Source: a virus
Length of the DNA stretch: 5,002 nt
IMG/VR virus record: IMGVR_UViG_3300045988_101410
Strand: one strand, 5' to 3'
Shown: positions 1 through 5,002 of the stretch, one piece after another
How positions within the stretch are numbered: position 1 is the first letter of the stretch
Layout of the letters: each line of letters begins with the position of its first letter
The notes under the pieces: model-generated
The model's input: the letters and a program-made list of their open reading frames with translations, nothing else
The model's database searches: none
What the model was told of the DNA's origin: nothing
Position numbers and translations under genes: made by a program

Positions 1-119
1 ACTTTTTTTTATTTACCTTGCTACGTTTAGCCATAAACGATACCTCCTAACAAAAAAAATACTGGGATTTTAAAGAGCATAGGTTAAACGCAATTACATT
101 ATAACACTAATCCATAAAA
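1..119. repeat. Terminal redundancy from linearising a circular genome; exact copy of 4884..5002
   Basis: Direct comparison shows 1..119 and 4884..5002 are identical, 119/119. The unique genome length is therefore 4883 nt, which fits a circular Microviridae genome. Confidence 0.95.
98..106 (-). promoter_or_regulatory. Extended -10 element TGTTATAAT on the coding strand, immediately after the VP2 stop and upstream of the small basic ORF
   Basis: The minus strand reads TAG-TGTTATAATG. It has a TGn plus a perfect TATAAT. No good -35 is present (TTACAG at 17 nt), which an extended -10 tolerates. It lies about 60 nt upstream of the ORF8-like ATG. Confidence 0.3.
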
Positions 120-1098: not shown

Positions 1099-2667
1099 TT
1101 AAAAATGGTCAACAAGTCCAGGCACGCTATAAATCGGCATAGGACGTACACAACTAAGAGAAAAATAACAATCTAAAAAAATTTGTGGTTCATTCTGCAC
1201 CGCCAAAACACGAGCCACAGGCGGATTATCCACTATAAACTCCGCATTCAACTTAGGAAGCTCCGCAAACTCTTGAGCAAGGTGCCAAACATCTAAGCTT
1301 TGCGCATACGTACTCCTAAACTTACCAGTAATTTGACTAGGGAAATAACGATATTCTGCCCAGCGTTCCTGATATCCAAATACTTTATCATCATCAGCAG
1401 TACCTTGAGCATAAATTTCCTTATTTAACACAGCCTGCTCACCTAAATGAGCGAGCGCAGGCCAATAATAATCAAATCGAGTCTGACGGCTCCACATTCT
1501 ATTTAAGCCTTGCTGATATGTTAAATCTGCACGTACATTTACAAGACCTATAATATAACCATGTTCCACAAAACTTTTTGTAAAGCCATTAACTTTATCA
1601 CCGAGAACACCATAAGCGGCGAGGTTACCTTGTGGGCTTGTAGTATCCGTTGCGGAAGTCTGTTGCACTGGATTTATATTTATACGTGTAGAAGAACCAC
1701 CTAAATATTCAGGACGTTGAAGCCTAGCGTCCGGAGAAATGACTCCGAAATGCGCTCTTAAAATTTCTGTATAACGTGTACCACCTCTAGCATCACGCTC
1801 ATAAAGCTTTTGAAGCTGGAAAGCTTGTCTTAAGCTATTAATAGTGATAGCAGTCGCACTAGATAAATCTACAGTAACACCACTTTTAGACATATCTATG
1901 CGATTAGTAGGAACAGTAATAGTGGGATTAACAGAAGAACCACCTTGCCAAGTCCAATTCGGATTATGAGACAAACCATTACCATCAGTATTTACACTTA
2001 AAGTATAAGAACCACCCGGAACAGACAAAGTACCATTTAAATTTGCAATAGAACCAAGCGGCAATTCTACTCCGGGGCCTTTTTGTGGCCATGGCAAACA
2101 TGAAGTAAAATAATCATGTCGTTTACCACGTCTTACAAGATTATATTTATTAATAGGGTCGGGACCATCTCCGGTCGGCACCTCTAAACTATCCTGCAAA
2201 TTTTCATCGCGAAACCACTCATTATAAATAAGGTTATAAGCTCGAAACGGAAGAGCATTAATTTTGTCTAAACTTACACCAGTAGGAATACCAAAATAAT
2301 CCGCAATAGAGCCAACCTCATGTTTGCCAGCTTCTAGGGTTGGTATTAAAAAGTCTGTACTGTCTCCAGGGTTTTTCTGTTCTCCGTTAAATTTTTGCCA
2401 GTTATCCCAAACAAGACGATTGGGAACAAAAAAGAAGAACGTTTCTAAATACATATTATCCATAAAAGGAACAACAGGAGTACTCAAACGACCAAATAAA
2501 GTAGCCTTTAAATTAAAAGTATCTCCCGGAAGAACTTCGTCAACAAAAAATGGGACAAGATAACCACTATCAAGCGTGGTTTTATAACCGTGGGAACGAT
2601 TAAAGCTACTACGTTGTATATCAGCTCTCGGAATTTGACTAAACAAATGTTGATTACTAGATTTCAT
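1099..2667 (-). CDS. VP1: VP1 major capsid protein (Microviridae F-family), 522 aa
   Basis: Largest ORF. Its size and position are typical of a gokushovirus major capsid protein. ATG at 2667 is preceded by AAGGTGA at 7-nt spacing. Stop is TAA at 1099-1101. Context is a complete microvirus gene set (Rep VP4, scaffold VP3, VP2). Confidence 0.88.
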   Translation of the reverse strand: MKSSNQHLFSQIPRADIQRSSFNRSHGYKTTLDSGYLVPFFVDEVLPGDTFNLKATLFGRLSTPVVPFMDNMYLETFFFFVPNRLVWDNWQKFNGEQKNPGDSTDFLIPTLEAGKHEVGSIADYFGIPTGVSLDKINALPFRAYNLIYNEWFRDENLQDSLEVPTGDGPDPINKYNLVRRGKRHDYFTSCLPWPQKGPGVELPLGSIANLNGTLSVPGGSYTLSVNTDGNGLSHNPNWTWQGGSSVNPTITVPTNRIDMSKSGVTVDLSSATAITINSLRQAFQLQKLYERDARGGTRYTEILRAHFGVISPDARLQRPEYLGGSSTRININPVQQTSATDTTSPQGNLAAYGVLGDKVNGFTKSFVEHGYIIGLVNVRADLTYQQGLNRMWSRQTRFDYYWPALAHLGEQAVLNKEIYAQGTADDDKVFGYQERWAEYRYFPSQITGKFRSTYAQSLDVWHLAQEFAELPKLNAEFIVDNPPVARVLAVQNEPQIFLDCYFSLSCVRPMPIYSVPGLVDHF

Positions 2668-2792: not shown

Positions 2793-2840
2793 GTCGGGAC
2801 AGTTACATCAAGTAAGGCTGTCCCGACCACACATTTTTTT
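2793..2840 (+). terminator. Plus-strand (antisense) intrinsic-terminator-like structure: 10-bp GC-rich stem plus T7
   Basis: gtcgggacag (2793-2802) / ctgtcccgac (2818-2827) is a perfect 10-bp stem with a 15-nt loop, followed by cacaca and ttttttt (2834-2840) on the plus strand. On the coding strand the same stem lies 11 nt after the VP3 stop. Confidence 0.4.
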
Positions 2841-3306
2841 ATTGTGTGCCTGCTCCCGCAGGTGCCGGCGGTTCCGGTTTTGGTTCCGGAGTTGGTTCCG
2901 GTTTTGGTTCCGGAGTTGGTTCCGGAGTTGAAGTTTTTTCCATTAATCCAAGTTCTACAGCTTCATCAAAATTGTCGGGGTTCTGCAGAAAACTGATAAG
3001 CTCCGCAGGGTTATTATTAAATCGCTGACGAATTTTAGCAGGTAAATCCATAAAATTTGCTTGTGCCTCTAAAAGCTGATTTTGTACCTGCATATAATCT
3101 TGAGGTAAATTGGAAAAATCGCCAAACATAGGCTGTCTAGCAGACCGTATAAGGGGATTTGTTAATAAACCAGTAGTATTATAAGAAGCAATAATATTAT
3201 TTATATCTGCTTCTTCCTTAAATTGCTGTTGAGCAAGCGAAGGCGCAGAATTAAAAGTCTGCACCTTAGGGGGAGTATCAAACCTAGTATAAAAATTACA
3301 CTTCTT
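2839..3306 (-). CDS. VP3: VP3 internal scaffolding protein (about 155 aa from a GTG start; the ORF track extends it to a TTG at 3387)
   Basis: It contains a segment APSLAQQQFKEEADINNIIASYNTTG that resembles the QxFK(D/E)ECDINNI core I recall for gokushovirus VP3 (Chlamy_scaf family). This is from memory and needs a search. AGGAG at 3319-3323 abuts the ATG at 3318 (0-nt spacing) but sits 9 nt before the GTG at 3304-3306, which also gives a typical ~150-aa VP3. The C-terminus carries (T/K)PEP x5 repeats. Stop is TAA at 2839-2841. Confidence 0.65.
   Translation of the reverse strand, partial: KKCNFYTRFDTPPKVQTFNSAPSLAQQQFKEEADINNIIASYNTTGLLTNPLIRSARQPMFGDFSNLPQDYMQVQNQLLEAQANFMDLPAKIRQRFNNNPAELISFLQNPDNFDEAVELGLMEKTSTPEPTPEPKPEPTPEPKPEPPAPAGAGTQ
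2870..2929. repeat. Five 12-nt tandem repeats (ggttccggtttt / ggttccggagtt) encoding the (T/K)PEP x5 tail of VP3
   Basis: Units at 2870-2881, 2882-2893, 2894-2905, 2906-2917 and 2918-2929, with a degenerate sixth unit at 2861-2869. On the coding strand they give TPEPTPEPKPEPTPEPKPEP. The repeat also creates spurious Gly/Ser-rich plus-strand ORFs. Confidence 0.9.
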
Positions 3307-3577
3307 CACAAATATCATCTCCTGAAGTAGATTGATAAGCAATAACCAAAGATTGAACCTCTGCAACAGTAGAAATATTTTCGGCAACTTTACCAGTATT
3401 TATATTTAAAGTTGCTAATTTATCCAATCTAAAATCTTGGGAAAAACGATTTAAAGAACAATCCGTGTCTGACAAAGCAGAATTAATAACAATTCTTTTC
3501 GCTTGTGCTTCACTTTCTGCAAAGAAAGGCATTAAATAATATTCGGCTTTTTTGTCATAAATAGAGTATAAATTCAC
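3296..3577 (-). CDS. Small conserved gokushovirus protein, VP5-like (possible phiX174 protein C analogue), 93 aa
   Basis: GTG start at 3575-3577, 9 nt after an AAGGAG embedded in the VP4 C-terminal codons (translational coupling: VP4's stop at 3579-3581 is 1 nt before the GTG). The N-terminus MNLYSIYDKKAEYYLMPFF resembles the conserved N-terminus of small gokushovirus proteins found next to VP4. It sits directly after VP4, as VP5 does in gokushoviruses. Function is inferred from position only. Confidence 0.55.
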   Translation of the reverse strand: MNLYSIYDKKAEYYLMPFFAESEAQAKRIVINSALSDTDCSLNRFSQDFRLDKLATLNINTGKVAENISTVAEVQSLVIAYQSTSGDDICEEV

Positions 3578-3578
3578 T

Positions 3579-4478
3579 TTAAATTTCTCCTTCCAAAGGT
3601 CTAATTAATTTTTGTGCTTTTAAAACTTGTATAGCTTCTTTAACTTCCATACGTTCCCAACTTTTTTCATGTTCATCAGATTGTAACGCAAGAAATTTTC
3701 GGCGAGTTTTAATATTGTGCATTTCCTCAGGGTTCCACTCATCATAGATTTTATCATAATAACGAGGGGGCTTGCACTTTATCCCATTTCTAATAACAAC
3801 ATAATCATGAGAGTAAACATCATTAGCAAATTTCTCTAACCAACCACGACCGATACCGGGTCGGCGAGACATTACAACATATTCGGGTTCTCTACCCTTA
3901 TAATGTTCTTCTGCCATATCTCCAGTAATTTTTTTAGTTACATATCTTGCAACATAAGCGCAAGACTCAAATGTAACATTGCCGATAGTAGAGAACCCGA
4001 AAGGCCATAACTTTTCTATCGAGGGGGAACGATAAAGAATATTACCATGTTTATAACTCCAAGGTTTTAAATCGGGGGGTTCAAAACCAAAAAATATAAC
4101 GTGGTAATGTGGTCTTTGTAACTGTTCTCCATATTCACCGCAAGCAAAATAACGAATACCTTCACCAAATTTTTTACGTAATCTCTTAAAAAAAAGTGTT
4201 AAAGCACGCTTATCTAAACTACCATTAGGGGGTAAATTTTGGGGGTTATAAGTAAGCGTTACAAAACAATTTTTCTCATGAAGGGTAGCCTCATGCACAC
4301 AACGAACAGCCCATTGACGGCTTTTTTCTAAACGACAACCAATACATTGACCACAAGGCACTAAAACCGGCATATCTATATAACCTTTTTTGGGATTAAA
4401 AACGATAGGCCAAGCGCCAGTATCGGGATTTCTACCCTCTTTACTTCTATAGCCTGTTATAGGGTGATAACAGGTCAT
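3579..4478 (-). CDS. VP4: VP4 rolling-circle replication initiator protein (phiX174 gpA-like HUH endonuclease), 299 aa
   Basis: It has RCR motif I CFVTLTY (aa 71-77), HUH motif PHYHVIFFG (H124-Y125-H126) and motif III with two tyrosines AYVARYVTKK (Y175 at 3954-3956, Y179 at 3942-3944; compare phiX174 gpA YVAKYV). An N-terminal CGQCIGC cysteine cluster is also present. ATG at 4478 follows AAGGAG at 11-nt spacing. Confidence 0.92.
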   Translation of the reverse strand: MTCYHPITGYRSKEGRNPDTGAWPIVFNPKKGYIDMPVLVPCGQCIGCRLEKSRQWAVRCVHEATLHEKNCFVTLTYNPQNLPPNGSLDKRALTLFFKRLRKKFGEGIRYFACGEYGEQLQRPHYHVIFFGFEPPDLKPWSYKHGNILYRSPSIEKLWPFGFSTIGNVTFESCAYVARYVTKKITGDMAEEHYKGREPEYVVMSRRPGIGRGWLEKFANDVYSHDYVVIRNGIKCKPPRYYDKIYDEWNPEEMHNIKTRRKFLALQSDEHEKSWERMEVKEAIQVLKAQKLIRPLEGEI

Positions 4479-4797
4479 AAAATTAACAACTCCTTATTAA
4501 GGACGTGGGGGATACACCCCCACACCCCTGTAATTTAGTACTACGGGTGCATAACAAGTCTGCACCACTCCGCACTAAATACGTATAACTATACTATTAA
4601 GTTACATGACTGTTGTTACTTAACAGCATATATTGTAATTATAAATGTTAAAACAAATAAAATATACAACAGTACGTATTTAGTTAAATTAATATCTTTC
4701 TTAAACCTAGCTATAATATCACCTCATCAAATAATCCTAAAATGTAACAATAAAAATAATAAAAAAATAATAAACAAATACAAAAGAAATAAACGCA
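4479..4797. promoter_or_regulatory. 319-nt AT-rich non-coding region between the small basic ORF and VP4; candidate origin/promoter region
   Basis: No ORF with a credible ribosome-binding site. It contains the G5/C5 hairpin, a 6-bp ggtgca/tgcacc stem (4546-4566), an imperfect ttaagttac/gttacttaa hairpin (4598-4624) and long A/T tracts. It is the only large non-coding stretch in the genome. Confidence 0.4.
4505..4523 (-). promoter_or_regulatory. Second G5/C5 stem-loop (gtggggg-ataca-cccccac), 12 nt upstream of the VP4 RBS
   Basis: Perfect 7-bp stem with a 5-nt loop. It has the same architecture and the same spacing to an (A)TAAGGAG site as the 1075-1093 hairpin. A C-rich tail cccctg follows. 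Confidence 0.45.
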
Positions 4798-4917
4798 TTA
4801 AATTCTAAAGCCTCCACGCATAGGCTTAGCACGCAAGTTTAAACCTTTTGTTTTTTCCGCAGTCCTAGAAAATAACTTCTTGGACTTTTTTTTATTTACC
4901 TTGCTACGTTTAGCCAT
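4798..4917 (-). CDS. 39-aa highly basic small protein, candidate DNA-binding/packaging protein (phiX174 J / Chlamydia-phage ORF8 analogue); absent from the ORF track
   Basis: Translated by hand: ATG at 4915-4917 (complement) gives MAKRSKVNKKKSKKLFSRTAEKTKGLNLRAKPMRGGFRI, then TAA at 4798-4800. It has 10 K and 6 R in 39 aa and an aromatic/hydrophobic C-terminus like J protein. A TAGGAGGT Shine-Dalgarno site lies 7 nt upstream. The N-terminal 11 codons are duplicated at 34..2 by the terminal redundancy, so the gene crosses the circular junction. Confidence 0.6.
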   Translation of the reverse strand: MAKRSKVNKKKSKKLFSRTAEKTKGLNLRAKPMRGGFRI

Positions 4918-5002
4918 AAACGATACCTCCTAACAAAAAAAATACTGGGATTTTAAAGAGCATAGGTTAAACGCAATTACATTATAACACTAATCCATAA
5001 AA
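4884..5002. repeat. Second copy of the terminal redundancy (circular wrap-around)
   Basis: Identical to 1..119. Confidence 0.95.

Follow-up and report, generated by a model that had tools for sequence, protein, structure and literature searches.

A 39-codon open reading frame at the genome junction of a microvirus, assigned by sequence to the gokushovirus VP8 (ORF8) gene

The DNA of the virus record IMGVR_UViG_3300045988_101410, a stretch of 5,002 nucleotides (nt) that is referred to here as the window, contains on its minus strand at 4798..4917 a small open reading frame (ORF) of 39 codons, and the question that this locus raises is whether such a short ORF is a gene and, if it is, what its product does. 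The original prediction was that it is an unannotated gene for a J/ORF8-like DNA-condensing protein. The ORF is a real gene and it is evolving under purifying selection. Its sequence relatives identify it as the VP8 (ORF8) gene of a microvirus of the gokushovirus type, and by analogy with solved homologues its product is very probably an internal virion protein that would be anchored by its tail on the capsid protein VP1 and would bind the packaged single-stranded DNA (ssDNA) with its N-terminus. The window is a circular microvirus genome that was linearised with a 119-nt terminal direct repeat (1-119 = 4884-5002) and, because the ends of the window are this repeat, the unit genome is 4883 nt. 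The genome join falls within the VP8 ORF, and the features of the locus are as follows.

4798..4917, minus strand: VP8 (ORF8) coding sequence by homology, 39 codons and a TAA stop at 4798-4800; peptide MAKRSKVNKKKSKKLFSRTAEKTKGLNLRAKPMRGGFRI
4925..4932, minus strand: VP8 Shine-Dalgarno site TAGGAGGT, with AGGAGG at 4926-4931 and a 7-nt spacer (4918-4924) before the ATG
2..49, minus strand: duplicate, by terminal redundancy, of the first 11 codons of VP8 (34..2), the spacer and the Shine-Dalgarno site (42-49)
4798..4821, minus strand: putative C-terminal anchor motif PMRGGFRI and the stop codon; MRGG-x-R does not vary within the family
4846..4914, minus strand: basic N-terminal segment (residues 2-24, AKRSKVNKKKSKKLFSRTAEKTK) that contains 12 of the 15 basic residues; a DNA-facing role is suggested by analogy with SpV4

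Coding status and family of the ORF

The translation given in the original prediction, which begins with ATG and has 39 amino acids (aa), agrees exactly with the ORF listing, and it was also correct that the ORF crosses the genome junction and that its first 11 codons are repeated at 34..2 within the 119-nt terminal repeat. The count of 16 basic residues, however, has to be lowered to 15 (10 K and 5 R); the peptide contains in addition 1 Glu and has a net charge of +14 and a mass of 4.4 kDa. A length of 39 codons is not significant by itself, since 28 ORFs in the window reach 30 aa or more. The Shine-Dalgarno site that had been described, TAGGAGGT, does lie 7 nt upstream of the ATG at 4925-4932, where the coding strand reads GTTAGGAGGTATCGTTT-ATG, and in the whole genome, both strands counted, AGGAGG occurs a single time, which is at this ATG. 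The ORF is on the same strand as all the other genes and lies within the VP2-to-VP4 interval.

The closest GenBank genomes, MG945479 and MG945583, are about 86-87% identical to the window at the DNA level (VP1, compared with MG945479 only of these two, is 88% identical), and they were used for the conservation and substitution checks that the original prediction had proposed. Both genomes retain the ATG, the 39-codon length and TTAGGAGGTAT, so that the ORF and its Shine-Dalgarno site are conserved together. Between the window and MG945479 the VP8 ORF has 23 nt differences, 17 of them synonymous and 5 non-synonymous (pS 0.70, pN 0.054; binomial p = 2e-8), and between the window and MG945583 it has 26, with 20 synonymous and again 5 non-synonymous (pS 0.81, pN 0.054; binomial p = 5e-10), which amounts to a pN/pS of about 0.07 against either genome and bears out purifying selection. 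The Shine-Dalgarno site is the same in the loci L001 and L002 and in 11 of the 14 contigs that contain this ORF start, and in distant relatives a GGAG or GAGG-type site is found at the equivalent place upstream of VP8. In these distant genomes the ORF has 38-44 codons, and in one distant clade it probably starts with GTG.

The exact VP8 peptide is present on 340 public contigs and a tblastn search with it matched 422 phage records. At 90% identity it falls in a cluster of 27 members, and the 14 listed ones, from which the substitution data come, show neither a frameshift nor a truncation; nor was any frameshifted or interrupted VP8 found in those fetched loci where the ORF could be reconstructed. 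Substitutions among the 14 are T23 to A, I or V, R18K, K22R, and K31 to T, R, Q or N, while PMRGGFRI is invariant. A VP2-anchored search of viral contigs yielded near-identical contigs only. A degenerate DNA pattern for KPMRGGFRI was found at 6 viral and 16 metagenome loci, of which L010/L022, L017, L018, L021, L030 and L031 were without a VP8-like ORF in the motif scan; most of these ORF-less loci are on contigs far bigger than a microvirus and they may be chance matches. An overlapping ORF of 31 aa at 4737..4832 on the minus strand was considered and rejected, as it extends into an 87-nt segment that is missing from the relatives. Taken together, the unique Shine-Dalgarno site, the excess of synonymous changes and the match to a PHROG family at the protein level are the reasons for regarding the VP8 ORF as coding.

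The PHROG family in question is PHROG 10695, which the window peptide matches with E = 2.8e-15 over residues 1-38 of 39. To the same family belong Chp2 ORF8 (NP_054652.1; E = 5.8e-19), the phiMH2K protein (NP_073546.1; E = 8e-8), whose annotation reads putative DNA binding protein and names phiX174 J as similar, and two proteins of bajarodmic viruses that carry the label DNA binding protein, so that the comparison with Chp2 ORF8 suggested earlier turned out positive. With phmmer the window peptide alone reached E = 0.039 against PDB 8DES chain E, which is the 39-aa VP8 of phiEC6098 deposited as 'Putative DNA binding protein', and an 11-sequence family profile matched the same chain with E = 1.2e-7 and aligned residues 3-39. 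In the 11-member alignment F16, M33, R34, G35, G36 and R38 are invariant; the family has a C-terminal motif M-R-G-G-[FI]-R-[ILF] that is followed at once by the stop codon, just as the window peptide ends with PMRGGFRI and a stop, and the relatives have 38-44 aa and 11-19 K+R. No Pfam family was matched by the VP8 peptide. The VP1 of the window matches 8DES chain A with E = 7e-218 (62% identity to phiEC6098 VP1) and 9CGM chain A, which is that of SpV4, with E = 1e-101. It is on PHROG 10695, the 8DES profile match, these VP1 matches and the gene order that the assignment of the ORF as a VP8/ORF8 orthologue is based. The six-gene order VP4-VP5-VP3-VP1-VP2-VP8 is conserved in enterogokushoviruses (PMC7062461), and the same order is found on the minus strand of the window, where VP8 is last.

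Among the closest known proteins is phiEC6098 VP8 (Enterogokushovirus; YP_009859313.1). It likewise has 39 aa, 16 of which are identical to the window peptide in a global alignment, its gene occupies the same place immediately behind vp2, with the non-coding region and vp4 coming next, and it shares the architecture in which a basic N-terminus leads into F...N...MRGG[FI]R[IL] and the stop. It differs in being arginine-rich with a net charge of +17, whereas the window VP8 is lysine-rich (10 K, 5 R) with +14, and phiEC6098 vp8 begins 2 nt past vp2 where the window has a conserved 72-nt spacer. Chp2 ORF8 and the phiMH2K protein, which are 38% and 32% identical to the window peptide, are small and very basic like it and have in common with it the C-terminal pattern LF-x-x-TA...N...MRGG-x-R-x. 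Their genes are placed differently: Chp2 ORF8, which has 44 aa, comes after VP3 in the order VP1-VP2-VP3-ORF8-ORF4-ORF5, and the phiMH2K gene has the VP5 homologue on one side and the replication gene on the other. SpV4 VP8 (PDB 9CGM; PMC11281519) is also a small basic internal capsid protein of a gokushovirus with its N-terminus towards the DNA, and it is regarded as a more distant relative because it gave no significant sequence match in the PDB search.

That the ORF is unannotated holds for the nearest GenBank genomes, as MG945479 and MG945583 are both without a feature here, but it does not hold for the peptide itself, since the identical peptide has been deposited at NCBI as DAX09365.1 under the name 'hypothetical protein [Microviridae sp.]'. 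Similarly, the statement that such proteins are rarely annotated in gokushoviruses describes a gap that exists in metagenomic records: among the 40 listed tblastn hits (out of the 422 matching records) 27 have no feature beneath them and only 3 are called 'DNA binding protein'. VP8 is nevertheless a known class of protein; its gene has a name and counts among the core genes of gokushoviruses, and density for the protein was seen by cryo-EM in two virions (PMC11281519, PMC7062461, PMC9239249). VP8 also serves as a conserved marker that connects gokushoviral subfamilies (PMC9239249). The VP8 gene is carried by almost all gokushoviruses and the feature is therefore an already known one; the shortfall is one of annotation and not of biological knowledge, because the family, its genome position and its place in the capsid have been published. 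The value of the present assignment is mainly for annotation, in that the gene can be labelled VP8 (DNA-binding protein) and PHROG 10695 could receive a function.

Proposed role in the virion and alternative readings

What VP8 would do in the virion can be proposed from its homologues. About one copy of VP8 per VP1, that is 60 per T=1 capsid, would be present, with the PMRGGFRI tail inserted in a hydrophobic pocket that opens on the inner side of VP1 and the K/R-rich N-terminal two thirds directed to the capsid interior, where they would bind the phosphate backbone of the ssDNA non-specifically and partly neutralise its charge. In this way VP8 would tether or condense the genome during and after packaging. 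By computation 60 x 14 = 840 positive charges correspond to about 17% of the 4883 phosphates; computed likewise, phiX174 J reaches about 13% and phiEC6098 VP8 about 23%. Translation of VP8 would be driven by the only consensus Shine-Dalgarno site of the genome, and we infer that this fits a protein that is required in capsid-stoichiometric amounts. In SpV4, density along the inside of the capsid was modelled as the VP8 protein, which has a pI of 12.9; the last residue of this VP8 is buried in a pocket of VP1 that is hydrophobic and lies close to the 2-fold axis (PMC11281519). Residues 9-38 of SpV4 VP8 are ordered in full particles and only residues 14-38 in empty ones (PMC11281519); that the N-terminus gains order only in full particles is consistent with its touching the DNA. 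Of phiEC6098 VP8 only the C-terminal 10 residues are ordered, and its C-terminal residues are likewise reported to be buried in a hydrophobic VP1 pocket (PMC11281519).

Several points weigh against this proposal. Virion location, copy number, capsid anchoring and DNA binding are all carried over entirely from homologues, PHROG 10695 is labelled 'unknown function', and RefSeq calls both phiEC6098 vp8 and Chp2 ORF8 'nonstructural protein'. The similarity of the single sequence to a solved VP8 is weak (E = 0.039 against chain E of 8DES), and in the PDB search SpV4 VP8 in 9CGM was matched neither by the window peptide nor by the family profile, the entry having been located through its VP1 chain. 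Finally, VP8 is found in empty SpV4 capsids, and its role may therefore exceed DNA packaging. We nevertheless consider it very probable that VP8 is an internal virion protein with a tail anchored on VP1 and a DNA-binding N-terminus.

One rival possibility is that there is no gene, and that a chance ORF in an AT-rich intergenic region has been conserved because of a DNA element such as an origin or a promoter. The ORF is short in a window with so many ORFs of at least 30 aa, it is without a Pfam family and the non-coding DNA that flanks it is very highly conserved and structured, but 70-80% of the synonymous sites against about 5% of the non-synonymous sites have changed, which is the opposite of what constraint at the nucleotide level would produce. 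The sole AGGAGG of the genome is correctly spaced from the ATG, the protein profile match has E = 2.8e-15 and a homologue was built into cryo-EM density. The PHROG match, the synonymous excess and the 8DES profile match effectively refute a chance ORF, to which we give practically no probability. It is also very improbable, though a little less so, that VP8 serves not as a DNA-binding protein of the virion but as a small peptide active in lysis or on membranes, comparable to an amurin or to E or K of phiX174. Small lysis proteins are encoded by microviruses, the lysis functions of gokushoviruses are poorly defined and cationic peptides could have membrane activity. Yet the peptide has no hydrophobic or transmembrane stretch (15 of its 39 residues are K or R and its longest apolar run is 2-3), VP8 homologues are located inside capsids, and in phiMH2K the candidate resembling E or K is a separate ORF, orfN.

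The small basic J proteins of phiX174, G4 and alpha3 (Bullavirinae; PF04726 Microvir_J; phrog_2354) probably work in the same way as VP8: J, for which the mechanism is well established, has about 25-40 aa, is rich in K and R and enters the procapsid with the ssDNA in 60 copies, its C-terminus being anchored in a cleft of the coat protein while its N-terminus neutralises DNA charge. The original prediction compared the ORF to both J and ORF8; the ORF8 side of that comparison has stood, and the link to J is one of analogy. A true homology, by which VP8 would be a member of the Microvir_J family beyond being a functional analogue, would be in keeping with the similar size (39 and 38 aa) and basic charge (15 and 12 K+R), with the GG that in both proteins precedes a hydrophobic or aromatic C-terminus, and with the phiMH2K record, which reads 'similar to bacteriophage phiX174 J protein'. 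In addition, the terminal four residues of VP8 and phiX174 J are reported to be superposable and to lie in the same capsid pocket (PMC11281519). This equivalence is reported for other VP8 proteins, and the composition of the window peptide and its C-terminus ...GGFRI are compatible with a small basic peptide that is anchored on the coat. Against homology, PF04726 is matched by J with 1.7e-16 and not by the window peptide, Chp2 ORF8 or the phiMH2K protein, and for the window peptide this is so even at E <= 10; J is in phrog_2354 and phrog_3780 and not in 10695, and BLASTP gave no alignment at E <= 100. The gene positions also differ, as the phiX174 J gene at 848-964 sits between D/E and F, just ahead of F, and VP8 sits after VP2 and before VP4. 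The path of the N-terminus inside the capsid is different as well, with the N-termini of VP8 and J reaching different symmetry axes (PMC11281519). Membership of the J family is thus unlikely, and on sequence grounds the window VP8 is an analogue of J and not a member of Microvir_J. There is still the reading that VP8 acts mainly as a staple on VP1 for capsid assembly or stabilisation, incorporated before or independently of the DNA, with charge neutralisation being secondary. It agrees with the order of residues 14-38 of SpV4 VP8 in empty capsids too (PMC11281519), with the capsid-binding C-terminus being the most conserved part while the sequence of the basic N-terminus varies freely, and with the proposal that Bullavirinae capsids are stabilised by conserved hydrogen bonds which the DNA-binding protein forms with them (PMC12328618). 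The empty SpV4 particles may, however, just have lost their DNA according to the authors (PMC11281519), and the basic charge stays high in all the family members despite the turnover in sequence, which argues for selection on nucleic-acid binding. The chance that VP8 is mainly a staple appears small to us, and smaller than that of a homology to J.

Genome layout and conserved non-coding flanks

All the recognisable genes of the window, which has a GC content of 36%, are on the minus strand, and genes of the phiX174 D, E and G type were not found in the window genome. The features other than VP8 are listed below.

3579..4478, minus strand: VP4, replication initiator (phrog_942, E = 1.2e-128; PF23343); downstream neighbour of VP8
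3577..3296, minus strand: VP5
3387..2839, minus strand: VP3, scaffold (Chlamy_scaf match)
2667..1099, minus strand: VP1, capsid, 522 aa
107..1057, minus strand: VP2, DNA pilot protein (phrog_8693, E = 1.3e-29); upstream neighbour of VP8
4716..4802, minus strand: AT-rich segment of about 87 nt that by alignment has no counterpart in MG945479 or MG945583

On the circular map the VP2 stop is 72 nt from the VP8 ATG, and a non-coding stretch of 319 nt lies between VP8 and VP4; the synteny VP2-VP8-VP4 is also seen in PQ006337, PQ006194 and phiEC6098. The VP3 ORF as it was called mechanically (2839-3387, minus strand) has a TTG start and overlaps VP5 by 92 nt. Its true start is probably an internal codon, because the VP3 proteins of relatives have 148-156 aa and the Chlamy_scaf match starts at residue 36. 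The C-terminus of VP3 has a proline-rich TPEP/KPEP repeat.

The 72-nt spacer between VP2 and VP8 (35-106 = 4918-4989, minus strand) is nearly identical in MG945479 and MG945583, a higher conservation than that of synonymous sites in the neighbouring genes; the spacer includes the TATAAT-like GTTATAATG. On the other side of VP8 the non-coding region 4479-4715 is almost invariant when compared to these two genomes, even though 70-80% of the VP8 synonymous sites are changed. Read on the minus strand, which is both the coding and the viral strand, this region has the nested inverted repeats CTAAATACGTACTGTTGTA ... TACAACAGT ... TACGTATTTAG, and a GTGGGGG-TGTAT-CCCCCAC hairpin is situated just ahead of the VP4 ribosome-binding site. 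When 4479-4715 was folded as viral-strand ssDNA the z-score was -4.4 and none of 100 shuffles folded as well. The conserved non-coding flanks are candidates for origin or regulatory elements. A promoter and terminator scan of 4400-5002 remained at the chance level, with 3 sites found against 2.7 expected; all the promoter sites were on the non-coding strand, there were no terminators, and no full promoter was found in the VP2-VP8 spacer on the minus strand. Rfam gave no match in the window.

The AT-rich segment of about 87 nt (4716-4802), whose placement is ambiguous by 1-2 nt, is also present in the near-identical relatives of the window. It starts inside the last VP8 codon, for which it supplies the last two bases of the Ile codon, and then the TAA, so that ATT-TAA in the window replaces the ATA-TAG of MG945479 and MG945583 and the protein is unchanged.

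Foreign junctions at the VP8 Shine-Dalgarno site

The GG of the VP8 Shine-Dalgarno site (AGGAGG/TATCG, + strand, ~4921-4931; here and below a slash marks the breakpoint) is the exact breakpoint in two related, independent public contigs. The first of them, L012, which is the same as L020 (IMGVR_UViG_3300045988_052311 / ENA OQHI01003558), is a human gut contig of 5035 nt with 4.4x coverage. It is a complete permuted copy of the genome of the window phage, 96-99% identical and without a terminal overlap, and its ends consist of 72 and 73 nt of foreign DNA, which represent the right end and the left end of an IS607-like element. This insertion sequence (IS) encodes a TnpA of the MerR+resolvase type (a serine recombinase) and TnpB, and it also occurs in an uncultured Clostridium metagenome-assembled genome (MAG) with 98.6% identity and in a Megamonas MAG with 94% (contigs L034 and L033); in all three contexts its right end terminates at ...GGCAACGG. 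The L012 junction can be written as GTTAGGAGG/left end...right end-CAACGG/TATCGTTT-ATG, which places the element within the VP8 Shine-Dalgarno site (~4925/4926; duplicate 42/43), and the breakpoint sequences are GTTAGGAGG/CTTAAAGC and CAACGG/TATCGTTT. Serine transposases of the IS607 type cross over at GG. The coverage of L012 is low, and the contig carries the ends of the IS while the IS interior is not on it. Other viral contigs have the same IS end 13-14 nt away from their termini, a pattern typically seen when an assembly breaks at a repeat. What L012 suggests is an IS insertion in a microvirus, giving a genome of ~6.8 kb, with a Firmicutes host.

In the second contig, L041 (Logan SRR31704310_4715, 37,651 nt), bacterial chromosomal DNA with genes for pst/phoU, serine dehydratase, GH18, EamA and a K+-channel-like ORF runs straight into phage DNA at the same Shine-Dalgarno breakpoint, the junction being ...GATAGAGG/TATCGTTT-ATG of VP8 (locus coordinates 9957-10437). 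The phage part comprises VP8 and the non-coding region, 423 nt that are 99.3% identical, and at a TCCCCC microhomology the contig then passes from the hairpin ahead of VP4 into VP3 before it ends. L041 could be a degraded prophage, the outcome of an integration mediated by Rep or a recombinase, or a chimeric k=31 assembly. The junctions of L012 and L041 may be real insertion or integration events or chimeric assemblies, and in 11 of the 14 contigs with this ORF start the linkage to the Shine-Dalgarno site is intact.

From these junctions one may tentatively ask whether, besides directing translation, the VP8 ribosome-binding site acts as a hot spot for recombination in this phage lineage, which we regard as doubtful, though with a somewhat better chance than a homology of VP8 to J. 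If it were true, gokushoviruses of gut Firmicutes would be open to invasion by insertion sequences that carry TnpB, and chromosomal integration at the VP8 site might use a route other than the XerCD/dif route of enterogokushoviruses. In this respect phiEC6098 has a dif motif for XerCD integration, whereas in the window a dif motif of the E. coli/phiEC6098 type was not detected, the best match having 11 mismatches of 28. If confirmed, such junctions would bear on how insertion sequences and TnpB enter tiny ssDNA phages, on integration by non-enteric gokushoviruses and on the host of this uncultured lineage; a literature search gave no paper that connects Microviridae with insertion sequences or TnpB.

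A further contig, L042 (JGI 3300076543 Ga0564369_00201, 8581 nt), contains ~1.75 tandem genome units of a close relative in which VP1-VP2-VP8-VP4-VP5-VP3 is repeated; either a circular genome was assembled as a concatemer or the contig represents a rolling-circle product.

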